From: an uncultured Planctomycetaceae bacterium
Lineage (GTDB): Bacteria; Planctomycetota; Planctomycetia; Planctomycetales; Planctomycetaceae
Reading direction: 5' to 3'
NCBI GenBank assembly: GCA_963815195.1
Contig: CAWFGE010000018.1
Coordinates: forward strand, 64,001-128,000
Length of the DNA stretch: 64,000 nucleotides
A program made the translations under genes and the position numbers. How positions within the stretch are numbered: the first letter of the stretch is position 1; each line of letters starts with the position of its first letter. Positions 23,659 through 45,640 of the stretch are shown here, in pieces. Below the pieces are notes generated by a model that ran no database searches, was not told the DNA's origin, and worked only from the letters and a program-made list of their open reading frames with translations.

Positions 23659-24770
<1,112 letters not shown>

Positions 24771-24943
24771 TGCGGTGTTCCTTGCGGTGGGAGTTGAATT
24801 GTTATTTGTGCCGGTGACCATGTCCCTCTCCTTGTGTGAAATGCTCCAAAAGAAACAAACGAATAGTATGTTCCTTTACGACTTAACACAAGTGGACATT
24901 CTGGACAAAATTCAAGTTTTTTTGAGAATTCCAAAAAAACCGC

Positions 24944-31290: not shown

Positions 31291-31740
31291 ATGCCTTTAC
31301 CACAGTTGACGAGTTCCGGGGAATTGCCGTTGGGCGTGCATTCGGCCTCGTTGAAGGAGATCCTCGATCGATTTGGCGGGGGACTCCCTCAAAGGGTTGC
31401 GGTCGGCAAACGATTGGAGCGAATCTACAATTTGGTCAAAGCCACCGGAGAGCTCGCTCGATTCGTCGTTTTTGGCTCATTTGTCACCGACAAAACGGAA
31501 CCAAACGACGTCGATGTATTGATCGTCATGGAGGATGCGTTCGATGCCGGAACTCTCCAAGGCGAAACGGCGTTGGTTTTCGATCACGCCGCTGCAGATG
31601 CGCATTTCGGTGCCAGTGTGTTTTGGGTGCGCCGGTTAGCAGCTTTTGGAGGTGAACAAGCTATGATAGAATACTGGCAAGTGAAACGTGGCGGCGGGAA
31701 GCGCGGCATTGTCGAAATCGTTGAGGAACCCGATGATTAA
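31291..31740 (+). CDS. Minimal nucleotidyltransferase-fold protein (DUF6932-like)
   Basis: GELPLGVH, FGSFVTDK.EPNDVD, GIVEI. Confidence 0.75.
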   Translation: MPLPQLTSSGELPLGVHSASLKEILDRFGGGLPQRVAVGKRLERIYNLVKATGELARFVVFGSFVTDKTEPNDVDVLIVMEDAFDAGTLQGETALVFDHAAADAHFGASVFWVRRLAAFGGEQAMIEYWQVKRGGGKRGIVEIVEEPDD

Positions 31741-31938
31741 AACCGACCAGGAATTTCAAGCGACGCTCGAACGGATTCAGCAACTTCAATCGCAGTTGCG
31801 CATCTGCGAAAGACGGAAACCAACCCCGCGAATTATCGGTTGTCCGCCTCCGGGTTTCTTTCAGAAATCGACCGCATGCAATTGGAGGTTCGGGAGTATC
31901 TCAGTTCCCTTCCCGCGAAAACGGCCTCGTCCGCCTGA
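31733..31938 (+). CDS. Small helical protein coupled to the NTase gene, frameshift near 31800
   Basis: ATG overlaps the NTase stop; MIKTDQEFQATLERI... continues in another frame as HLRKTETNPANYRLSASGFLSEIDRMQLEVREYL. Confidence 0.6.
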
Positions 31939-32124
31939 GACTTCCCCACCGGTCCCGAATGCGGCGGAAGCGACAGAGTGGCGGGGGTCGATCTGCCGCT
32001 GGTCGTGTCGAGTCCGGTTTCGACGTCTTCGGCAGATTGCCCCCAGCGATCGAGGATGCCTTCGCTGGTGAGCGAAGTAGGGCCTAATCCACCCACCCTA
32101 AATTTGATTTGATTAATCATCCTC

Positions 32125-34251
32125 ATGAGCATCGTCGTTCCTGAATCCAAGCTCCCCCAAGAACTCACGACCGATCAGGCGGTGGAGGCGGCTTATGCTT
32201 GCGAGCTCGCGGATGTGACGGGCGACCTTGTGCGGGGGCTCCCCGTGTTGGTGGAATGCGACAAGGATTTGGTGCCTTGGCTGTTTATCAATGTCCGCGG
32301 GCGGCTCAAGCAGCATGAGCTTCGCAGCTTGTTTCTGGACGGCCGGCCGGGGCCGGACGATCAGGGCGGCGGCATGGGGCCGCCGACGTTTGTCGGGGTG
32401 ATGCTCTCCCAACTGCGGGCGGCGGTCCGCGGGGCGGTGGAGAAGCGCGTGGTCGTGTTGCCGCATTTGGATTTGCTCACCACCAGCCAGGGCGGACTCA
32501 CCGCGGAGGCCCGCGAAGTCATTCCGCTGCTTTATGAAAACCCGGAACTGGTTTGGCTGGGGTTTAAGGATCCCTCCTTCCCGCTGCCCCGCGTCATCGA
32601 AAACCTGTTCCCCCGGCGGTATAGCCTGTTGGGGATCGCCCGGGATCGGCTGTCCCATCTCGTCACGCAAAAGGAAGCCCGCAAGTTCGGGCGGGATTTT
32701 AATCCCTGGGCTTTGTACAAGCACGTCTCCGGCATGAATGCCGCCCGACTGCGAAAACTGCTCTCCACCTTGGAGGGCGAAGACTATCCCGCCAACCCCC
32801 GCCGGGCCGTCGCCCAAATTCGCCAGGCCACCTTGGGCGGGCAGTTGGAGGTGCCCAACGTCGATCTGGAAACCGACATCGGCGGCTATCCGAAAGTCAA
32901 ACAACGCCTGCGGGCCGAGATTCTCGATGTGCTCGCCGCCAAGGACCAGGCCAGCGATCCCGCCGAGATCACCCGCATGGAAAAACTCATTCCCCGCGGC
33001 ATGATCTTTTGGGGACCGCCGGGCACGGGGAAAACGCTGTTCGCCAAAGGCATGGCGACCGCGCTCGGGGCGGCCATCACGATTGTTTCGGGACCGGAAC
33101 TCAAAAGCCGCTGGGTCGGCGAGAGCGAAGAAAACCTGCGGCTGATTTTCCACCGCGCCCGGCAGTCGGCTCCTGCGATCATCGTGTTCGACGAATTGGA
33201 TTCCTTCGCCTCCGCCCGCGGGACCTACACTGGTTCCGGCGTCGAGCATTCGATGGTCAACCAGATGCTCACCGAGATGGACGGCTTTCATTCGGACGAG
33301 TTGGTGTTTGTCGTGGGCACGACGAACTTTGTGGAAAGCCTCGATCCGGCGCTGTTACGGCCGGGGCGGTTTGAGTTTCATCTGCACATCCCCTATCCCG
33401 ACCGTGACGACCGCCGGGAGATTTTGAAGATTTACGATGCCGCGATGGACCTGGGCATGGACGAGGAGACGCTGGAATACGCCGTCAAACGCAGCGGCGA
33501 ATATGTCGAAGGGGCGGTGTTGGGCACGCGGTTCAGCGGCGACCACATCAATGCTCTCTGCCGGGCTTTGGCGCGGATTCGGCTCCGCGAAAAAATCGAG
33601 CGCCCCACCACGTCCGAGGACATCGAACGCGCTCTGACCGAGTGGATCGACCGCCCGAAGATGACGCCCAAGGAGCAGCACGTCGTCGCCACGCACGAAG
33701 CCGGGCATGCGGTGTGCGCGCTGTTCTGCGAGCACGCCACGCCGATCGAGCGGATTTCCATCCAAGGCGACGCGGCCGGGGCTTTGGGGTTTGTGCAATA
33801 TCAGGACCCGGCCCATAAATACGTCGTCACCCGCGGGCAGTTGCTCGATGATTTGTGCATCCTGATGGGCGGCCGCGAAGCCGAGCAATTGTTGCTCGAT
33901 GATCTTTCGATCGGTTCCGCCGATGATCTCCGCCGGGCCACGAACATTGCCCGGGCCTTGGTGGAAGAGTTCGGCATGGGCGGCGATGCGGTGGGTGTCT
34001 GCCGCTACGAAGCCGACGACGACCGCCAACCGGGACGCTTTCGCCAACTCTCGCCCGCGCAATTGGAACATCTCGACCGCCGGGTGCGGGAACTTTTAGA
34101 AGAAGCCCGCAACCGAGCCGCGGCCATTCTCGCGGAGAACCAAACCCTCGTGGAAACGCTGCGGGATCTGCTCATCGACCGCAAAGTCATCGACGCAAAG
34201 TCCCTCAGCAGCCTCACGGGCAAACCGGTCGGGCAAGAGAGTTCACAATGA
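32125..34251 (+). CDS. Soluble FtsH-like AAA+ ATPase with C-terminal M41 peptidase domain
   Basis: GPPGTGKT, pore loop WVG, IIVFDELD, DPALLRPGRF, HEAGH, GGR.AE, DL.RAT; no TM helices. Confidence 0.88.
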   Translation: MSIVVPESKLPQELTTDQAVEAAYACELADVTGDLVRGLPVLVECDKDLVPWLFINVRGRLKQHELRSLFLDGRPGPDDQGGGMGPPTFVGVMLSQLRAAVRGAVEKRVVVLPHLDLLTTSQGGLTAEAREVIPLLYENPELVWLGFKDPSFPLPRVIENLFPRRYSLLGIARDRLSHLVTQKEARKFGRDFNPWALYKHVSGMNAARLRKLLSTLEGEDYPANPRRAVAQIRQATLGGQLEVPNVDLETDIGGYPKVKQRLRAEILDVLAAKDQASDPAEITRMEKLIPRGMIFWGPPGTGKTLFAKGMATALGAAITIVSGPELKSRWVGESEENLRLIFHRARQSAPAIIVFDELDSFASARGTYTGSGVEHSMVNQMLTEMDGFHSDELVFVVGTTNFVESLDPALLRPGRFEFHLHIPYPDRDDRREILKIYDAAMDLGMDEETLEYAVKRSGEYVEGAVLGTRFSGDHINALCRALARIRLREKIERPTTSEDIERALTEWIDRPKMTPKEQHVVATHEAGHAVCALFCEHATPIERISIQGDAAGALGFVQYQDPAHKYVVTRGQLLDDLCILMGGREAEQLLLDDLSIGSADDLRRATNIARALVEEFGMGGDAVGVCRYEADDDRQPGRFRQLSPAQLEHLDRRVRELLEEARNRAAAILAENQTLVETLRDLLIDRKVIDAKSLSSLTGKPVGQESSQ

Positions 34252-34256
34252 AAGGA

Positions 34257-34844
34257 TAAACCACGAAGACACGAAGGAGACATTGACCGCTGTCTCGCAA
34301 ATCCCGCCGCTTGTTGTCGGCGTCTGTCTCTATGTCTTGTTTTCTGGGAGAGTCTGGTGGCAACATTCAAACGGCTCGATCCGAAGACGGAAGAGATCGC
34401 ATCGGCGATTGTGGATTCCGTCTATCGCGTGCATTCGACGTTAGGGCCCGGATTGCTCGAAAAATTGTATGAGGTATGTTTGTGCCATGAATTAAATCAA
34501 CAAGGCTATCAAGTTGAACGCCAACTTCCCGTGGCGATTGAATACGGCCAACTGCACTTTGACGAGGGATTTCGGATTGATCTTTTGGTCGAAGGTTGCA
34601 TCCTTTGCGAATTGAAGGCGGTCATGGAAATGCATCCTGTATTCCAGGCGCAATTAATGACGTACCTGAAGTTAACCCGGAACCGGCTGGGTTTCTTGAT
34701 CAATTTCAACGTCCCATTGATCAAGGACGGAATAAAACGAATCATTATGTAATAGACCAGCCTCGTAAAAAATCGCCAAATCCCAGGGGCACGCGGATGA
34801 GTTTTTAGCGAGCTTCTCGCCGTTCTTCGTGTCTTCGTGGTTTA
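34257..34844. mobile_element. Inverted-repeat-bounded GxxExxY cassette (putative mobile unit)
   Basis: Perfect 20-bp IR TAAACCACGAAGACACGAAG at 34257-34276 and 34825-34844; lower GC inside. Confidence 0.65.
34357..34752 (+). CDS. GxxExxY protein (PD-(D/E)xK nuclease-like)
   Basis: LGPGLLEKLYE, RIDLLVE..ELKAV, AQLMTYLK, GFLINF. Confidence 0.92.
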   Translation: MATFKRLDPKTEEIASAIVDSVYRVHSTLGPGLLEKLYEVCLCHELNQQGYQVERQLPVAIEYGQLHFDEGFRIDLLVEGCILCELKAVMEMHPVFQAQLMTYLKLTRNRLGFLINFNVPLIKDGIKRIIM

Positions 34845-34867
34845 AAACCTGTCAAGGAGAACTCAGC

Positions 34868-35155
34868 ATGGCTGAGATGACGATTAGTTTGCGGATCGAT
34901 CCGGTGACGAACAAGAAAGACATCGTGGTGACGCTGCGGTCCGATGAGGATGCGCTGCCTCACGAGCACGAACAGCTGCACCGCCAATTGGTGGACCGAT
35001 TGATCGAAGGCGGACTCTTGCAAGCAGGCGAGGCCGGGAATCTGGTGATCGAGCGCGAGGAAGAATCCGCCGTCCCGGAAACGCGGGCACCGGCCGAAGG
35101 CTGGTCTGGTTCGCCCGGCGAATCGGAGCGACGCTCCGCCGCGGAAGGCCAATAA
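34868..35155 (+). CDS. Small hypothetical protein of the FtsH/MoxR locus
   Basis: AAGGAG RBS; MAEMTISLRIDP..KKDIVV..SDEDALPHEHEQLH. Confidence 0.75.
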   Translation: MAEMTISLRIDPVTNKKDIVVTLRSDEDALPHEHEQLHRQLVDRLIEGGLLQAGEAGNLVIEREEESAVPETRAPAEGWSGSPGESERRSAAEGQ

Positions 35156-35188
35156 AAAGTTCCCCAACCCACTTCACGCCTCGCCTCC

Positions 35189-38100
35189 ATGATTCTGCTG
35201 TTTCCCGATAAGTCGACGTTGAAACTCGCGCTCACGTCCGGGCTCTTGCCGGCGGCGGTGGCGTCCGCGCCCAGCGAATTTGCCACGCACGAAGACGGGC
35301 GGGTGTGGGTGAAGTCGGAATGCGAATTGGAGCAGAGCCTGCGGGAATCGCTCCAACCTCTGGGCGTCAAGTTTCGCAAAACCACGCGGGGGGCGACGTC
35401 GCCATTGCAATCGGCGCGCTGTTGGCCGCAGATGCTGCCTTTGGAAAAAACAGCGGGCGCCAACGGTCTGGGCGAACGCACGCCGGTGCTGTTTGACTTG
35501 CCGGAATCCGCGAGGCTGGCCGACGTCGTTTCCGAAATGCTCCGCCTGGGGAACGACCGCCAAAGCTTTCGGCAGCAAGAAACGCCCGACGGCGTGCGGA
35601 CGCTGCTCCAAGTCAAAGGGCCGCCTTATTACACCTTGTTGCGGGCGATCGATCACATCGATGGCCAGGCGGCGCCGCGGGCGTATGTCGAGCAGCAGCC
35701 CCGCGTGTGGGTGGAAGTGGGTTATTCGCATCCGCTCGCCGAGCAAATCCAGCCGGCCCCCGGCACGTTTTTGCTTCTCAGTTCCCCGCGGGAATGGACC
35801 CTTATCGAAGATGGCAAATTCCACGACATCTACGAAGCCCTGCGGTTTACCGTTCAGGGCGAACCGATTCGCTGGGAAGCGGGGGAACTCAAGGAGAAGC
35901 TCAAAGTCCGCCTGCGTCTCGTTCGCGGCGGCAGCGATGCCCCGGCCGAGCTTTGGGTGCTCAATGAAGCCGGCGTCTCGCAGTTGGAAGAGTTGGTTTA
36001 CGGCTCGGACGATCGGCTGATTTCGCGGCTGGCGTTTGCGGTGGGAACTTCTGAAGATTCCGAAAACAGCCGGACGGTGGTGGTCAAAGTCCGGCCGGGC
36101 AAAGAGGCTCCGCCGGTGTTGGTGTTGGACGGCGTGGCCTGCCGGAGTTATTTGCGGATCCCCAACCTGTTTGTGCCTGTGGGCTATCGCCTGCATCCGC
36201 CGCTCCGCCGGGATGCGGTGAAGCAGCTCCTGGCGGCCGATCCCAACCTCGACACCTGGCTCGTTCCAGAAGCGGGCGGTCAGTTCGTTCCCCAAAGCCT
36301 GCCCGACAGCGCGTTTCGTCCGTTGTCGGACTGGGTGGATTACGTGCTGGAGTCCGAGCAGGAACCGCTCGCGGCTTGGATGGGTTCGATGCAGTTCGAT
36401 TTCGAGTCCTTCATCTGTCCCGATGAAGGCCCCGACCGCAGCCCGCGCGCGAAGATGGAACGCCCCGAAAAAGAAATCAAAGAGCGGAAACCATCGCAGC
36501 CCAAAACTCCCCAAGCCCCGCGAACCAAACACGCGGCGGACAAGAAGCCGGAGGCTTCGGCTCCACGTGCGAACAAGCGCTCGCCGCGCTCGGCAAAAGG
36601 GGACGCCGTTCCGGTAAGTGAACTCCAGTTGAAGCTCCAAGGGCTGGAACACCGGTTTCGCGAGTTGTCCCTGCCGGCGGATGATCCGGAACGGCTCGCT
36701 TTGTGGCGGGAGTTGGCGGAAACGCACATGGCGCTCGGCGGGCAGCAAAAAGCCGAGGGCGGCGTGTGCTACGTCCACGGGCTTTGGGAACAGCCCGACA
36801 TCCCGCCGGATTGGGTGGAGGACTGGTTCGCCGCCGAGGTCGACGGGCGGAACATCGAGCCGATGGCGGGCGAGGAATTCTCGTCGGCAGTCGAAGCCGA
36901 GAAACCCACGCCCCAGCAGCTCAATCAGATCACGGTGCACCTCATTGCCGCCGCCTTTGGGGAGCACGTTTCGCCGGACCCGGCCCTGATCCAAAAACAT
37001 CTCGGCCGGGTGCAGAAGCTGCTCAAGATGTATGACGCGTTTCTGCCCATCCGCACCGTCTGGCTCGCGTGGCTCGCGTGCGTGAAACTGGCCCACAACG
37101 ATGTGCTGCTTCTGGCCCGCGTCCGCGATCGGCTGTTGGAACGGCTCTATCAATACGGCCTGAGTGCGGAACTCGATCTGCCGGGCTTCCTGCGGTCGTC
37201 GGGCCGGCGGACCGGCGAACGCTACCGCAAAATTCAGGAAGACCTCCTCGCCCTCCGCCCGCGGGTGCAGGCTTGGATCAAGCGGGAACTCGAATCGACG
37301 AGCAGCACCGGCCGGGGACAAACCGCCGCTTATGCCGACTTGATCCTGGCCTATGGATATTCCCGCGTCGGCCTGGCGGAAGAATGCGGGCGGCTGTTGG
37401 AAGAGACGCAGGAACGGCTGTCGCGGCCGAACGTCAAGCACCCGGTGCACGATTGGCTGCGGGAGGCGTTTCGCTACCGCATCACGCAGTCGCTCCAGGG
37501 CAAAAGCCGGGCCGGGGCCTTGCCCGATGAGTTGATGAAGGTGCTCATCGAAAAGCAGATCGAGCCCGGGCTTGTGTTTATTATCGATTCCCTCCGCGGC
37601 AAATCGCGGGTCCTGCAACCTTATGAGCAAATCGGCGGGCACACGCGGTTCCTCGCCAGCCTGAACGACAGCAACAAAAGCCTGGCGTCCGAAGTCGAGC
37701 ACCTCTCGGACATCGACAACCGCGTGGAACTTGCCGAGCGGATTCGCGATCTGCTCGAGCAACATGGCGGAGACCAACCCCTCGCGGAACCGAAATCGAA
37801 CGTGCCCCTGTCCCGCGGATTGGCATCCACCGATTCGGAAAACCATCAGGTGCTGCTCACGGCGGTGCTGCCGTTTGCCCCAAGGCTCGGCGAAAACCAC
37901 GCGAACGAGCTCTTAAACGAAGTCGCGGGCACGCTCGAGCGATTGTCCGATCCCCGCCGGCAAGCGATCCTCCTCGATAAGAGCCTGTTTGTCGCGGCCC
38001 ACTTCGGGCATTCCGTCCATGTCCGGCAGCTCGTGGAACAACTCGACGCGTTGTTTGAATCCGCCAGCGCGCCGAGACGGCCCGCGTGTTCGGGGAACTC

Positions 38101-38727
38101 TTGGGCCAATCCTTTCGCGGGCTTCGCAAACTCGGCATGCGGGGCGAGATCTCTAAACTCCTCGAGCACATCGACCGGCTCCTCGCGGCGGGGCGGTTTG
38201 AACCCGCTCAACAAGAATCGAGCGCCGGCAAAAAGCCCAAATCAATCCGGCCCTCCAAAGAACGCGAGAACGCCTCGCTCGCCAGTCGCGCGGCATCGAT
38301 GATGCTCCGCATGAACCTGGCCGCGGGCTGGTTTTTCTTTGGGAACTCCGAACGGGCGAACGCGATCGTCGAGGAGGTGGCGAAGTTTCTTTACGAAGAA
38401 CACAGCCTGCCGCCGCACCTCCGCCGGCTGCTCGCGCGGCAATATGCCTCCGTGCTCGAGCACGCTCCGATCGACGTGGCGATTCCCCGGCTCAATGAGG
38501 TTTTCGAAAAGCTCGCGAGCATCACCAAAGGCATCGGGGCGGGCATTCAAGATCAATACTATGCCCAAGAGCCGTTGGAAGTTGTGGAATCCGCGGTACT
38601 TGCGTTGGTGAGCGATGAGTTTACACTGGATCCTAAAGCTCGAAAGCTGATGGATGAATATGAATTCTCCATCCGCCGCAGAATCCACCACGACATGGAA
38701 CACGCCCGCCACGAAGCCGGTCTATAG
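35189..38727 (+). CDS. Large (~1180 aa) unknown protein with helical C-terminal half, frameshift near 38075
   Basis: ORF 35189-38302 degrades after ~38075, where ORF 38086-38727 takes over with protein-like sequence. Confidence 0.75.
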
Positions 38728-38827
38728 GCAAATTTAGGAAACACTCATCGACGCGAATCAAGCTGAGTTTTAGTGCGGCACGTGAAAAATTGCTGCCGCC
38801 GCTTCGCGGCTATTACCGTCTTAATAA

Positions 38828-39892
38828 ATGAGAATAGCAGTCGAGAACTTTATGAATACAACAACCCTATCACCATCCGCCTCTCGCTTGCTGGAAGACT
38901 GGTCCTTTGAGGACCTGAAGGACGAAGCGGACGAGATTCGCCAGCGATTGAACCGGTTTCGCACCTCCGTCAGCCGGTTTTTCGTCAAGAAGCAAGAGCT
39001 GGTCGATTTGATGCTCATCGCGGCGGTCGCCCAGGAACCGCTGCTACTGGTCGGACCGCCCGGAACGGCCAAGTCGGATTTGATCCTCAAGTTCAAAGAT
39101 GCTTTAGGCGTTCCGGACGAAGACTATTTCGAGTATATGCTCACGCGGTTTACCGAACCGTCGGAAGTCGTGGGGCCGATCGACATCAACCAGCTCCGCG
39201 AAGGCCGCTATATCCGCCGGGAGCAGGGGAAACTACCGACGGCGCGGGTCGCGTTTCTGGATGAGATCTTCAAATCGAACTCCGCGATCTTAAACATCCT
39301 GCTGACGATCATCAACGAGAAGAAGTTCTATCAAGACGGCCGGCCGCAGCCCGTGCGGCTGAGGATCTTGTTCGCTGCGACGAATGAAGTTCCCGAGCAC
39401 GGCGAACTCGCCGCGCTCAAGGACCGGTTTGTGTTGAAGGCCGAGAGTCTGTCGGTCGCCGACGATTATTTCTCCGAACTCATCGACAGGGGCCTCGAGG
39501 CGGAGGTCTATCGCAACTTGAACCAGAAGCCTTGGATGGAAGGCCACGCCTCGCTCGATGATGTGCTCAAGGCCGGGCGATATATGACCTATCTGTTCGG
39601 GCAAAAGCAGAACGTCGGCTCTCATAACGAGCAAACCGACCGCAAGCTATTTTTTCCCGATGAGATTTTCCGCGAATTTCAAAGGCTGGTGAAGACGCTG
39701 GTCCGCGAGCATCGCATTTTTGTGAGCGACCGCAAGCTGGTGAAGCTGTATAAGCTCATGCGGATCCGGGCCTGGCTGTTCTCCGGCGGCACGGTCACCC
39801 GCGACGACTTGAAGCTCCTCACCTATCTCGGCGAAACGCACCAGGAGATGGCGCTGTTAAGAGAGCAGGTTCCGATCCTGCTCGGGGAATAA
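38828..39892 (+). CDS. MoxR/RavA-type AAA+ ATPase
   Basis: LLVGPPGTAKS, YMLTRFTEPSEV.GP, AFLDEIFK, ILN.LLT..NE, AATNE, ALKDRF, SDR. Confidence 0.88.
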   Translation: MRIAVENFMNTTTLSPSASRLLEDWSFEDLKDEADEIRQRLNRFRTSVSRFFVKKQELVDLMLIAAVAQEPLLLVGPPGTAKSDLILKFKDALGVPDEDYFEYMLTRFTEPSEVVGPIDINQLREGRYIRREQGKLPTARVAFLDEIFKSNSAILNILLTIINEKKFYQDGRPQPVRLRILFAATNEVPEHGELAALKDRFVLKAESLSVADDYFSELIDRGLEAEVYRNLNQKPWMEGHASLDDVLKAGRYMTYLFGQKQNVGSHNEQTDRKLFFPDEIFREFQRLVKTLVREHRIFVSDRKLVKLYKLMRIRAWLFSGGTVTRDDLKLLTYLGETHQEMALLREQVPILLGE

Positions 39893-40146: not shown

Positions 40147-43100
40147 CTAGAGCGGCGAGGCGCCGATGAGGTCTTCCTCTTCCTCTTGGATGATGATCCG
40201 GGGGGTGACCATCAGCATCAGGCTTTCCGTTTCCCGGCCCACGCCGGTGTTCTTGAACAGCCGGCTGATGTAGGGGATTTTGTTGAGGATCGGGACGCCG
40301 GCCATGTTTCGGCCTTCGCGGAGTCGTTTGATGCCGCCCAGGAGGACGGTTCCGCCGTCGGGGACGCTGACGGTGGTGGTGACGTTGACGACTTCGAAGA
40401 CAGGCTGCTGAATGGTGGTGGTTCCGACCGCTCCGCCGCCACCGCCGCGATTCCCGCCGCCGCCTTGACCGCCGCCGCCTTGACCACCGCCGAAGCCGCC
40501 GCCGCCTTGACCGCCGCCGAAGCCGCCGCCGCCTTGACCGCCGCCGAAGCCGCCGCCGCCGAATTGCGAGGGGAGTCCGAGGGAGAGGGCATTGGCCGCG
40601 GGCGGACCGCCGCCGATGCCTCCGAAGCCGAAGTTTCCGCCGCCGCCGCCGAAGCCGCCGCCGCCTTGACCGCCGCCGAAGCCGCCGCCGCCTTGACCGC
40701 CGAAGCCGCCGCCGCCGCCGCCGCCGATGCCGCTGGCGTTACCGCCGAAGCCGGCCCCGCCGCCGCCGAAGCCGCCGCTGACGCCGTTGTTCGCGGCCCC
40801 GTTGGCCCCGCCGGCTCCGCCGCCGCCGCCTTGGAACGAGAAGGTAAATACGTCGGTGATGTTGGTGAAGTTGGGGATCACGGTCAGTCGGACGAACCGC
40901 CGGTCGGCCGAGATGACGGCGAGGACCTGCAGGGTGACGCCTTCCGAGAGCGTGGTGATCTGGGGCGTGAAGCCGACGGAGAAGAAGCCCACCGTCGGAA
41001 TCAAACTGGTGACGAACGGCCGCTGCGTGGTGCTTTGCACCGTGGCCGTCTGCCCGTTAAACAGCGTGACCTTGGGAGCGAACATGATGTTGGTCCGCTC
41101 GTCGGCCTGGGCCGCCTGGATGAAGAAGAAGGCTTCGATGTCCGACAGGATGGCCATCCCCACCTGGACGCCCGCGTTGGGGTTGAAGTTGCCGAAGTCG
41201 GGTACGCCCAGGTCGAACGAACCCTGTTGGAACTGCACGTCCAGGCTGGGAGTGAACTGACCGGGAGGCGCTCAGACCGACGATGGTGCCGTTCTTGGGC
41301 CAGTTGTCCAAGGCGGGCAGGTTGAGGAGTCCGGGCGGACGCAAGAACTGTGGGCCGGATCCCGCGGCCCCGCCCGCTCCGCCACCCCCGCCGATCCCGC
41401 CGACGTTCCCACCGGCCCCGCCGATGCCGCCGCCGCCGATGCCGCCGAAGCCGACGTTGCCTCCGGCGTTCCCGCCGACGTTCCCGCCGACGTTGCCGCC
41501 GACGTTCCCGCCGACGTTGCCTCCGGCGTTGCCCTGGTTTCCGAAGCCGCCCGAGATATTGCCTTGAAGGGGGGCACCGAAGGCGGGCGGAGTCTGGCCG
41601 AGCGTGTCGCCTTCCACGTTGTCTTGCACGTTGAAGTCGAAGTCGATCCCGATTCGTTCGAAGAACCGGTCGGTCACCGTGATGAACCGCACTTCAATCG
41701 TCACCTGCAAATCCTGCAGCCGGCGAAGCTGCTCGAGCAGGTCGCGGATTTCTTCGTGGACTTTCTGCGTTTGGCGAATCACGAGGCTCAGGGTGGTGTC
41801 AAAGGACCGCACCGATCCGCTGCCGCCGGCCTCGGCCCAGGTGTCCGGCTCGATCGTGCTCACGATCAGATCCGAGAGCGTATCGAAATCCACCGAGGAG
41901 CCGCCGCCGCGGAGGCTGGCTTCGAGACCGGGGGCCGCCCAGGGATTGTCGAGATTCCCCGCCCCGCCGAAGTTGTCTTGAACCTGAAACTGGGCGGCGG
42001 CCACCGGCTGCAAGCTGCCGCCGGCGGGGATGCTGAAGTTCGCCGGACCTTGCCAGGCGTTGTTCGCCGGGCCGCTGCTCGTCAGGCCGGTCCCGCCGCT
42101 GGGCTTGAAGTTGGGGATCGGCGTGACCAGGTCGGCGACCGAATAGGTCCGCACTTCCAACTTGCCCTGTTGCCGGATTTCGCTGGTGATTTTCAGCACT
42201 TCGTCTTGAATCATGTAGGACAACCGCAACGGTTCCAGAATCAAATGCAAAGCGCTCGAAAGCTTGATGCCCTCCACGTTGATCGTGATCGGCTGGTCCG
42301 GCATGATGCCTTCATCGCTGAGGCCCAGGTTGTCGACCACCACGTTAATGCCCGCCGTCGTCGCCACGTGCTGCACGACTTCGTTCAACGGCGCTTCGGA
42401 GAAGTGCAGCGAGATCGGCCGTTCCAGGCTCTTTTCGATCCTCTGCTCTTCCTCGGTCTTGGCCCGGTTGTCCGTCCCGTAGCGGCTGCGGCGAGTTTTG
42501 ATTTCCGACCAATTCTTGGGAAACTTAATGGGGCTGTCGTCGCCCACATCCACCACGACGGCCTGTTCCACATCATCCAACTGCTTCCAAAAGCTCTCTT
42601 CCTTGCGATCCTGGAGATTGTTGTTGCTGGCGTCCCGGCGGGCAAAGCGGGCCTTCCAGAACATCGTCACCGTCACCGGGTTTTCGGGATCGAGTTCCCG
42701 GGCTTTCTTGGCGACGACTTCCGCTTCCGCGTACCGGCGTTGTTTGAAGAGCTTGTTGTACTCGTCGACCATTTCCGCCAGTTCCTGCTCGATGCGGACT
42801 TCGATCTCGCGCCCGCGGCGAATGTCGTCGAGGACCTGCTTGTTTCGCTCTTCCAACTCGAGGATCGGAGCCCGCTGCTTCTGCCAGGCTTCAATTTCCC
42901 CGCGGGACAGCTTGAGCTGGTTCAAAAGCGGCGCGAGTTGCTTTTCGGTCAGATCGGAATCGCCGATATTCGCAATCGTGCGGTCGATGAGTTCGAGCGC
43001 CTCGGTCGGTTTTTTCTCCCGCAGCCGGTCGGCTTGGAAGATCGCGTTGAAGGTTTCCGAGCGAAGCTTTTCGTACTTCACGGCTTGCTGTTTTTCCACG

Positions 43101-45112
43101 AGGCCGATGCTGCCCGTTCCCGGTCCCACGCGGTGCTCTTCGTTCTTCACCTGCCGAATGCCGCCGGCGTGCTTCTTCTGGACGATCGGCCGCAGCGATT
43201 GCAGCATGTCCTGGAGGGACTGGGCCCGGTAGGGATCGAGCTTCTGCCCCGAGTTGTAACACTTGAGGAAGGCGTCGTAAGCGGTCTCGTAGTCGCCGTC
43301 CTTGAAGTGCTTGAGGCCCTGGTCGAATAGCTCCTTGGCCGTCACGCCGGACGACTGCACCACTCCGGTTTCCGAGTCCGGCGGGGCGGGGGCTGTTTTG
43401 GCAATGTCAAATCGGCCCGGTTCTTCCACCGGCAACGGCGGTTGGGCGGAGGGGCGCGGCTCGCTCGTTCCCGGCGCGGGAAGAGTCGGAAGCTTCGCCA
43501 CCGGTTGCTGCGTTTTCGGTTGAGGCGCGATGGCGGGACGCGGCGCGGCCGGGTGTTCCGGTTTTACCTCCGTCTCGGGAGGAAGCAGATTGGCGATCGG
43601 CTTTTCTTCCGGGAAGCCGGGGGCTTGGATCGTGGGAGCCCGCGGCGCTTCGGGAGCCGCCGGTTGCGTCTTGGCGACCGGCGGGAATCCGGGGAAGCTC
43701 GGAGCCGGTTCCGGCTCGGCGGGCGCCGGCCGCTTATATTGCTCCAACAGAGCCGCCACCGATTGGGGCTTGTCGTCGAAGAGGTCGTATTTGGCGTTCA
43801 GGCTCTTGGCTTCTTGGATTTTGTGTTCGGCGGCGTCGAACCGGGCGGCGCGAATGTCGGCCCGCGCTTCGTTCAACAGCTTCTGAGCTTTATCGTGTTT
43901 GGCGATCTCGGCGGGATCGGGCGGAGCCGGCATCGTCCGCGGACGGATGACGGGAGCCTGCTGCTGCGCCACCGTCTGGGCTTGGGACTCGATGCGATTG
44001 ATGTCCTTCAAGACCAGCTCGGGCGTCTCGTCAAACACGAGATAAACCACGTCCAACTGCTCGGCTTGTTTGATCTTGTCGCGCGCCGATTGAAACCGTC
44101 CCGCATGGGCTTCCTGGCGGGCATCGGCCATCAACTGTTGGGCTTGGGCTTTCTTCCGGTCGTTTTGATTCTTGGGAGCCGGCGGAGCCTCTGGCGGCTG
44201 CCGACCGGCGGCCGCAAACGGATTGCCCATGGGCGCTTTGGGATTCGTGCCGGGCTGGGAATTGCCCGCGGCGAACGGATTTTGCACCGGGGCCTTGGGA
44301 TTGGCGTTGTTGGGAGACCCGGCCGAGGCGAAGGGATTGCCGATTTCGTTTCGGGGCGTGATCGTCGTCGTATTGGATTTCCGCTCGATGTCGGCGAGCA
44401 TTTGCTGGGGGGTTTCTTCAAACAATCCCCAGGCGGCCTTGAGCTTGCTGGCTTCGAGGGCGATGGCGCGGGCCTCGTCGATTCGCCCGGCGTTGAGCGC
44501 CGCGCGAGCCTGGCGGAGAAGCCCCTGGGCTTGCCGCTTCGCCGGGGAATCGGAACCCGGCAGCGTGGGCACCGGACGCGCGGGGCGCTGTTGGAGGGCA
44601 TTCGCCTGTTGGAGGGCATTCGCCTGTTGGGACGCGTCAAAGTCCGGGCCGGCCGCGAGATCCGGAGCGGCATCCTGGTCCGGGGCGAACGGATTGCCGA
44701 GCGCCGCCGGCACGCCGCGCTTGGGAATCGGGCGGCCTTGGACGCGAGCGATGAACTCCGCCGGCCATTCCGCGTTCGGGTTGAGCGGGATGTGCGCCGC
44801 TTGCACCAGGGCGTTTGCCGAGTTCGCAAACCGCAGCGCCGCGTTCATGTTGCCCCGCCGTTCCATCTCGGCGGCTTTTTGCATGAAGTCGTTGACCCGC
44901 GCTCGCTGCGCCGCCTGGAGGCGGTCGTTCTCCGCCGAAGGCGGCCCCCCGAATCCCGGCGGTCCTCCCGCGTTCGATTCCGGTTCGGTTTGAGCCAATA
45001 TGGCTTGAGTGGTTTGCTGGGAACTGGCCCACCAAACCGAAGCAGCGACCACGGTCGCACAAGCGAACAATCCGATTGTCTTGCCCAACGGTAGGTTCCT
45101 CCTACAGGCCAT
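40147..45112 (-). CDS. Giant secretin (T2SS GspD/PilQ-like), frameshift near 41260
   Basis: STN-like [11 protein letters not shown]-domain [28 protein letters not shown]-terminal [39 protein letters not shown]. Confidence 0.85.
40461..40725 (-). repeat. Coding tandem repeats (~27-nt unit, GGGGFGGGQ)
   Basis: Repeated GCCGCCGCCTTGACCGCCGCCGAAGCC units inside the secretin gene. Confidence 0.8.
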
Positions 45113-45640
45113 AAGACGCAGTGCTGACTTCAACGTCCATGTTGCGTCGTCATAAAATCCAAAACGTTCCGCCTAAAATCATCCGGGATTTCGTCGCGTC
45201 GAACACAAAGGAGCATGACACGCCAGGAAACGAGGCGAATCCCAAACGACCCCGTGCCGCGTGGAAGACCCGCCGAATTGTGATTTGAAGGGTGAGATCA
45301 CGAGACACGTAAGGTGTGCATCGAGAAAGGCGGGGGATAGATAACGAAACCCCGAAAGCGGGTCAAGACGGCTCTCGGTAAATTGAACAATTCTCTTGCA
45401 ATTTTCACCTGATTCCGAGGCAAGACGCCGAAGCTCCGAGGCCGGGGCAAAACACGGGGCAAGAGGAGAACGAGGCAAAAGGGATAAGCCAGAGCAAAAA
45501 AGCGAGCAGCCCGAAGCCACCGGCCGCCCGCCATTTTATCCCCCTTGCCCGGATGCTCGCGAATTCGCCCCGACAATTTGAAGCGTGGAGGATTCGTTGG
45601 AACCGTTGGCCCCAAGGGTCCGCCGGGGTTCACTCGTCGA

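Follow-up and report, generated by a model that had tools for sequence, protein, structure and literature searches.

Between positions 32125 and 39892 of the window, a 64,000-nucleotide stretch of contig CAWFGE010000018.1 from an uncultured Planctomycetaceae bacterium (GenBank assembly GCA_963815195.1), four co-oriented genes encode a soluble FtsH-like protease, a small protein (X3a), a giant protein (X7) and a MoxR ATPase. These genes almost certainly belong to an FtsH ternary system of the simple type. They are not self-contained: they form the central half of an eight-gene system that is dispersed in this organism, with its gene set complete. The main text of Kaur et al. 2020 (PMC7159879) distinguishes a "simpler" type among FtsH ternary systems (vWA-MoxR subsystem 3), which has a radical SAM enzyme and a vWA protein with a helical domain, and presents FtsH ternary components as operons; defence against invaders in a multicellular host has only been predicted for it, and our literature search found no experimental paper on the system. 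The genome is 8.9 Mb in 25 contigs, and the closest relatives of the window's proteins are labelled Planctomycetaceae or other Planctomycetia. The features of the block, with the E-values of their profile matches, are as follows.

32125-34251, plus strand: soluble AAA+/M41 protease (FtsH-like), 708 amino acids; Pfam AAA 9e-40, Peptidase_M41 6e-40
34257-34276 and 34825-34844: perfect 20-nucleotide inverted repeats around the GxxExxY gene
34357-34752, plus strand: GxxExxY (PD-(D/E)XK) insert gene; PF13366 6e-38, TIGR04256 3e-40
34868-35155, plus strand: fvmX3-analog (X3a), 95 amino acids; PF20002 4e-27
35189-38727, plus strand: fvmX7 giant protein (X7), ~1180 amino acids; PF20005 4e-90
38828-39892, plus strand: MoxR AAA+ ATPase (bpMoxR), RavA-like, start likely at 38852; PF20030 1.5e-58

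A sequence-only reading of this stretch had named an FtsH ternary system, and it had the family right: in the profile search that it suggested X3a (PF20002), X7 (PF20005) and bpMoxR (PF20030) match, and ivWA, X5, X6 and a radical SAM enzyme are present in the same genome. It had, however, taken half of a dispersed system for the whole, and although its four genes do lie on the plus strand where it placed them, it overlooked the fifth co-oriented gene, that of the GxxExxY protein. The window itself holds no vWA gene; an ivWA with a helical N-domain is encoded among unrelated genes at C15:198.6-200.0 kb (PF19997, E 7e-43). A radSAM-X6-X5 block, also among unrelated genes, lies on contig C12, where the NrdG-like radical SAM gene is at 991.2-991.8 kb and X6 and X5 match PF20004 (E 7e-83) and PF20003 (E 2.5e-58). 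Next to the radical SAM gene here, gene calling gave no small open reading frame that could be a candidate peptide effector. The system is spread over three contigs here and does not form one neighbourhood. Elsewhere, among 80 related loci (many cut short by a contig edge), 24 have FtsH, X3a, X7 and MoxR in one block, and given that count the four-gene arrangement is not chance. The full order radSAM-X6-X5-FtsH-X3a-X7-MoxR-vWA is intact in six of the 80. Not one of 18 carrier genomes has all eight genes together and two have seven; in G003 and G144 they occupy six or more places with unrelated flanks, six genes standing alone in G144. Where an assembly is fragmented, some of the splits may reflect the ends of contigs.

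The core parts travel together between genomes, contrary to the possibility raised in the sequence-only reading that they might not. Our panel comprised all 18 carriers found, chosen by X7 or X3a, and 32 X7-negative relatives, and its counts are descriptive. X5, ivWA and the FtsH N-domain were each found in 18/18 carriers and 0/32 non-carriers, as was an orthologous MoxR (E < 1e-110), six non-carriers having distant MoxR proteins only (E 1e-36 to 1e-42); X7 and X3a occur in all 18 carriers. Carriers are rare: seven of 201 genomes of the phylum (by X3a), five of 151 of the order (X7 above cut-off, with two more sub-threshold) and nine of 41 relatives. Because so few phylum and order genomes have it, the system is dispensable. 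Trees of the components agree with that of RpoB (r 0.78-0.85 over 12-17 genomes, leaving out genomes with less than 45% of a protein), sharing 5-9 of 7-9 supported splits, and supported conflicts arise only inside the genus of the window's organism, where they concern G003, a genome with a broken RpoB. All eight genes are under purifying selection, with ratios of nonsynonymous to synonymous substitution (dN/dS) of 0.04-0.20 against G001 (X7 0.16), while two neighbouring housekeeping genes gave 0.09 and 0.11. From the agreement with RpoB and the purifying selection we infer that the machine is old, passes down vertically and disappears as a unit, and that it is not a mobile defence island.

The sequence-only reading had also suggested an anti-phage role, as is argued for all ternary systems by Kaur et al. 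2020 (PMC7159879), and for this we found no direct support. Such a system would be self-activating: MoxR and vWA would release a latent complex on infection, and the protease would activate an effector from among the system's own products (X7, X6 or a peptide modified by the radical SAM enzyme). Two patterns fit this. Rates relative to RpoB set constant ATPases (MoxR 1.0, slope 1.03; FtsH 1.5) against faster X5, X7 and vWA (1.9, 2.0 and 2.8), and presence is patchy and all-or-none, a 28-tip RpoB tree of selected genomes requiring at least six changes. Yet there is no defence-island context, the neighbours at the locus being housekeeping genes (recA, mnmA, a secretin), and the trees, which follow that of the species, show no sign of horizontal transfer. 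The genes are scattered over as many as six or seven places. Neither Pfam nor PADLOC (the latter matched only a generic AAA domain) recognised a nuclease, pore or NADase domain in the system proteins, no peptide gene lies beside the radical SAM gene in this genome, and even X7 is held by purifying selection. No relative of X3a was confirmed in viral contigs among 270 pattern matches, the patterns being planctomycete-biased, and X5 had no viral match at E 0.001. We consider a self-activating anti-phage system unlikely.

Much less probable still is that the operon is a decaying remnant that has lost vWA, X5, X6 and radical SAM and whose giant gene is broken. Four genes are indeed missing from the window, and the X7 and vWA genes are each split in the assembly, but the genome has all four missing genes at other places, contigs assembled from a public run have the one additional base that closes each break, recA shows like errors, and the low dN/dS values are not those of decay. 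As deposited, X7 is two open reading frames (1037 and 213 amino acids). Near 38071 a 675-base contig of the public run, in which one other letter differs, carries an extra base, as do three congeners; the run has low depth (3.7) and may be the source sample. We read the split as an assembly error because of these four witnesses and because the same run shows further single-base differences, one of them in recA. With the base restored the intact protein has ~1180 amino acids, the size that the sequence-only reading had given. Both halves of the vWA gene match a single G037 protein. The recA gene (23659-24821) and a large secretin-like gene (40147-45133) are each split into two open reading frames as well, and public-run contigs are one base shorter at 24253 and 25478. 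The assembly has scattered single-base errors, and split genes in this genome are not to be taken as pseudogenes.

The variable part of the system may lie outside the eight genes. TIGR02996 is a 45-residue domain found mostly on leucine-rich repeat (LRR) proteins, and we tested this family because its genes kept appearing beside genes of the system. All 13 carriers of the same class hold 3-20 matches, whereas 29 of 32 non-carriers hold none and the other three one each. Across an evenly drawn sample of 151 genomes, four or more matches occur in exactly the five X7 carriers, the other 146 having none (126 genomes), one (17) or two (3). A copy lies within ~2.5 kb of a system gene in seven of the 13 same-class carriers, and the 80 X3a loci (1.18 Mb) hold 14 copies in nine loci, against ~1.6 expected at the mean carrier density and 4.4 at the highest; this count used a home-built profile, which recovers the same eight copies in this genome. 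Fifty-two control loci gave no match, a weak control since only 0.3 was expected. Positions within the operon vary: after vWA, between radSAM and X6, between X3a and X7, and before FtsH. Five of this genome's eight copies are joined to LRRs, one to an FGE-sulfatase-like domain and two to no Pfam domain, and two operon-linked copies at other loci carry WGR. In seven genomes with few TIGR02996 copies, X5 was found in 0/5 and the FtsH N-domain in 0/5, in a run that included no positive genome; the same queries were positive in the carrier panel. Our literature search found no paper naming the domain. Neither TIGR02996 nor M41 is mentioned in the main text of Kaur et al. 2020 (PMC7159879), where LRR occurs only in the reference list; the source data of Figure 1 may cover some of these. 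Three small operon inserts (L183:9136-9984, L183:17533-18096 and L196:6084-7114) resemble the TIGR02996 core by eye and were not recovered by an iterated profile search.

Several observations show that this tie is not obligate or otherwise weigh against a receptor-fed machine. Twenty non-carriers in the 151-genome sample have one or two TIGR02996 copies, and all five deep-branching carriers have none. Nine further X3a carriers, tested as a prediction (ten were tested and one duplicate dropped; genome completeness is unknown), gave 44, 10, 3, 3, 2, 2, 0, 0 and 0 matches; of the three zeros, one has a complete eight-gene operon (L174), one has a vWA gene and in one no vWA gene was found. Altogether the domain is missing from 8/27 carriers tested. 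No TIGR02996 gene of the present genome adjoins a system gene (the nearest is ~13 kb away), and no system protein carries a TIGR02996-like domain, so that homotypic docking is not supported. X6 was found in 16 of the 18 panel carriers, with one weak match among the 32 non-carriers, and radical SAM in 15 of 18 in a search confined to carriers. The panel's genomes are kin and not independent, its positives having been picked by X7 or X3a, and vertical inheritance with housekeeping neighbours is equally compatible with a non-defence role. Expansion of TIGR02996 appears to need the machine, while the machine does not need TIGR02996, and such a one-way tie is as expected of optional receptors or clients.

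It is also possible, if rather less than likely, that the system is a housekeeping chaperone-protease. It would then serve a lineage-specific structure or metalloprotein, in the manner of RavA-ViaA assembly, with radical SAM and the HExxH protein X3a acting in cofactor or subunit maturation and TIGR02996 merely sharing lifestyle or ancestry. Single copy, vertical inheritance, purifying selection, a MoxR that evolves as slowly as RpoB and an NrdG-like radical SAM enzyme all fit such a role, as do a position directly behind mnmA in G002, the lack of any recognisable toxic effector among the system proteins and loci examined, and the complete operons in genomes without TIGR02996. Against it, only seven of the 201 phylum and five of the 151 order genomes carry the system, no client operon co-occurs in the loci examined, and a shared lifestyle does not explain why TIGR02996, WGR and WD40 genes have repeatedly entered the operon. 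A WD40-type gene lies between X7 and MoxR at L174:13716-14720, L196:13680-14717 and L042:13936-14901 (Pfam WD40 confirmed for L174); present also in a genome without TIGR02996, it is possibly another receptor class.

We favour, tentatively and at somewhat under even odds, a reading in which TIGR02996-tagged binders bring targets to an X7-based complex, MoxR and vWA rearrange that complex, and the target is then unfolded and cut by a soluble double-ring protease; the purpose would probably be surveillance inside the cell. That the eight products form one cytoplasmic, ATP-driven unfolding-and-degradation machine, fed by variable TIGR02996-tagged repeat proteins, is likely. If they act as known MoxR-vWA pairs do, the MoxR ATPase and its divergent vWA partner would open up or remodel an assembly based on the X7 solenoid. 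Going by domain content, the double-ring AAA+/M41 enzyme would thread and cut the client, with X3a (HExxH) and X5 as putative small cofactors. Co-expansion and gene neighbourhood suggest that TIGR02996 could be the dock by which binding modules (LRR, FGE-sulfatase-like or WGR) attach to the machine, much like an F-box or effector-associated domain. The likeliest use may be surveillance of foreign or aberrant intracellular proteins, and this is the weakest step of the proposal.

The protease consists of a family-specific N-domain (~1-240), an active classical AAA+ domain (~245-440) and an M41 peptidase with HEAGH at 524-528. Walker A (GPPGTGKT, 297-304), Walker B (FDE, 355-357), the pore loop (WVG, 330-332), the arginine fingers R412 and R415, and H524, E525, H528 and D601 are invariant in 10/10 orthologues; D601 we take, by comparison with FtsH motifs, to be the third zinc ligand. 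There is no evident membrane anchor, the top 19-residue hydropathy being 1.43 in a scan with no positive control alongside. The earlier description of a membrane-less FtsH-like enzyme with intact AAA+ and HEAGH peptidase stands on its Pfam matches, its motifs and its hydropathy. For the AAA domain the scores are 189 bits against CDC48 and 150 against FtsH, whereas the genome's two canonical FtsH AAA domains score 410 and 398 to FtsH (196 and 203 to CDC48), and against the canonical FtsH model TIGR01241 the protein reaches 284 bits, under a cut-off of 600. Because of this gap in FtsH scores we regard the enzyme as FtsH-like in layout and not as an FtsH orthologue; its sequence places it in a separate lineage of the classical AAA clade, not specially close to FtsH or CDC48. 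Kaur et al. 2020 (PMC7159879) describe the N-domain as an inactive AAA+ domain that lacks both P-loop and Walker B. Residues 1-240 contain no P-loop and have no match in Pfam or PDB, and profile comparison with the protein's own active AAA domain gave a weak match (probability 0.8%, E 0.07).

In X3a, the HEHEQLH motif pointed out from the sequence is partly conserved. Its core E-H-E-x-x-H (E33, H34, E35 and H38) is present in 134/134 close relatives, and among 150 divergent relatives HExxH is kept in 146 and E33 and E35 in all, while the leading histidine is variable (61/150). The protein is likely a metal-binding small subunit, judging from these residues; it is too small for a full zincin and has no sequence relative in PDB. 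An AlphaFold model of the intact X7 orthologue of G002 (mean confidence, pLDDT, 85.8) has an alpha/beta N-region (1-390), a disordered linker and a ~700-residue alpha-solenoid, which suggests a predicted scaffold. A fold search with it returned generic solenoids only (best Z 12.9, root-mean-square deviation (rmsd) 8.2, 257 residues aligned) and barely covered the N-region, in which an internal repeat was not significant; a bpX2 match in X7 is sub-threshold (E 0.005). MoxR has the P-loop variant GPPGTAKS (GxxxTAKS) and is 54-95% identical across the 18 carriers. The earlier label of a RavA-like MoxR ATPase holds: besides its bpMoxR match, the protein matches the RavA model at E 3e-41, though under that model's cut-off. 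The X5 model (pLDDT 89.7) has a helix-grip/TBP-like core with long strand pairs and a 67-residue helix, and its best fold match (Z 8.9, rmsd 3.0, 94 aligned) is within the common-fold range.

With the simple FtsH ternary system as described in the main text of Kaur et al. 2020, the present one shares its components (FtsH-like AAA+, GxxxTAKS MoxR, helical-N divergent vWA, radical SAM), a planctomycete host and the order within the four-gene block, but it is split over three contigs where the paper describes operons. A NEFF1 effector and a standalone peptide gene also mark the type, and no peptide-effector gene was seen here. The complex FtsH ternary type (beta-propeller vWA, ubiquitin-like (Ubl) tri-ligase, EAD1, caspase) has the same ATPase core; X5 resembles fvmX2 (98 of 124 members) and X3a resembles fvmX3 (22 of 127), but no Ubl ligase, JAB, EAD1 or caspase gene lies at the loci studied here. 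By analogy, TIGR02996 would hold the adaptor place that EAD1-Ubl has in the complex type. The protease has the AAA+-then-M41 order of canonical FtsH, but no membrane anchor and a 240-residue family-specific N-domain; with Cdc48/VAT it shares the two-domain ATPase layout, and its best PDB sequence matches are VAT/p97, though it falls below both the CDC48 and the FtsH family cut-offs. As in RavA-ViaA and other MoxR-vWA pairs, MoxR has a co-inherited vWA partner; it differs from RavA in scoring below the RavA cut-off, in being shorter and in its TAKS P-loop, and the system differs in its divergent vWA and in five or six further co-inherited proteins. The MoxR-vWA-beta-propeller ternary system is distinguished by a beta-propeller vWA and bpX proteins, of which we found only the sub-threshold bpX2 match in X7. 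A separate system of that kind (bpX4, MoxR, bpX2, bpX0/bpX1, bpX3), with its own MoxR, lies on contig C21 (L029:5273-13298).

F-box receptors of SCF complexes have a short constant N-terminal tag on variable LRR or other binding repeats, expanded paralogues, an alpha-solenoid scaffold and a degradation machine. TIGR02996 proteins likewise combine a constant tag with variable repeats beside a solenoid and a protease, as do effector-associated domains, a comparison we take from Kaur et al. 2020 (PMC7159879). No ubiquitin-like tag is seen here, and we intend analogy only, with no claim of homology. A candidate homology of the N-domain, X5 and X3a with Ycf46, DUF1257 and DUF2997 was not supported: profile-profile probabilities were below 2%, neither DUF1257 nor DUF2997 was among the Pfam member hits, and an ESM Atlas search returned only fvmX3-type and unnamed clusters. 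Genes for DUF1257-like, DUF2997 and Ycf46-like AAA proteins do occur at C15:278336-286124 (L045, L149), in a region rich in insertion sequences, followed by ubiquitin-like and JAB-like open reading frames (by eye).

The GxxExxY gene between the protease and X3a is an unrelated insert outside the system. We read it so because it sits inside a perfect inverted repeat and is absent from the corresponding loci of two congeners, G001 and G002; gene and repeat together (34257-34844) are probably a small mobile or repeat-associated element. Across the genome there are 13 occurrences of a 16-nucleotide core of this repeat, 17 of a related 18-nucleotide motif, and four further GxxExxY homologues. Upstream, between mnmA and the protease gene, positions 31291-31939 hold a DUF6932/nucleotidyltransferase-like gene and a short downstream open reading frame, with a weak PADLOC PDC-M63A match; this insert is not at that site in G001 or G002, and a near-identical partial copy lies on contig C8. 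The gap holds different inserts in different congeners. A promoter scan found nothing above chance. In one family (L019, L021, L024, L194, L219) the X7 gene of the operon is present as two tandem paralogues, usually preceded by a gene for RNA 3'-phosphate cyclase (RtcA), and in the three genomes of this kind that were searched the MoxR and vWA genes lie elsewhere in the genome. The deep-branching carriers of L035, L036, L037 and L038, which lack TIGR02996, have opposite-strand kinase- or FHA-like genes (by eye) after X3a.

Taken by itself the locus adds another copy to a predicted system, and its interest lies in the dispersal, the vertical inheritance and the link to TIGR02996. Since the machine stays complete though scattered, a test that cloned just the four-gene block would come out falsely negative, and copies described elsewhere as "incomplete" probably have the full set. 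Until now the simple FtsH ternary system has had no clear variable part and TIGR02996 no known partner, and their co-expansion and repeated linkage offer one answer to both. A bolder picture, which we find unlikely, is that planctomycetes hold an ancient, vertically inherited, receptor-programmed degradation machine. TIGR02996 would be its F-box-like docking tag, and up to dozens of LRR, FGE-sulfatase-like or WGR receptors would deliver targets to an X7 scaffold, a MoxR-vWA remodeller and a Cdc48-like AAA+/M41 protease without a ubiquitin-like tag. If TIGR02996 is a docking tag, bacteria would have in this system an analogue to F-box-directed proteolysis or to repeat-receptor innate immunity, and it might also serve as a reprogrammable degradation tool.

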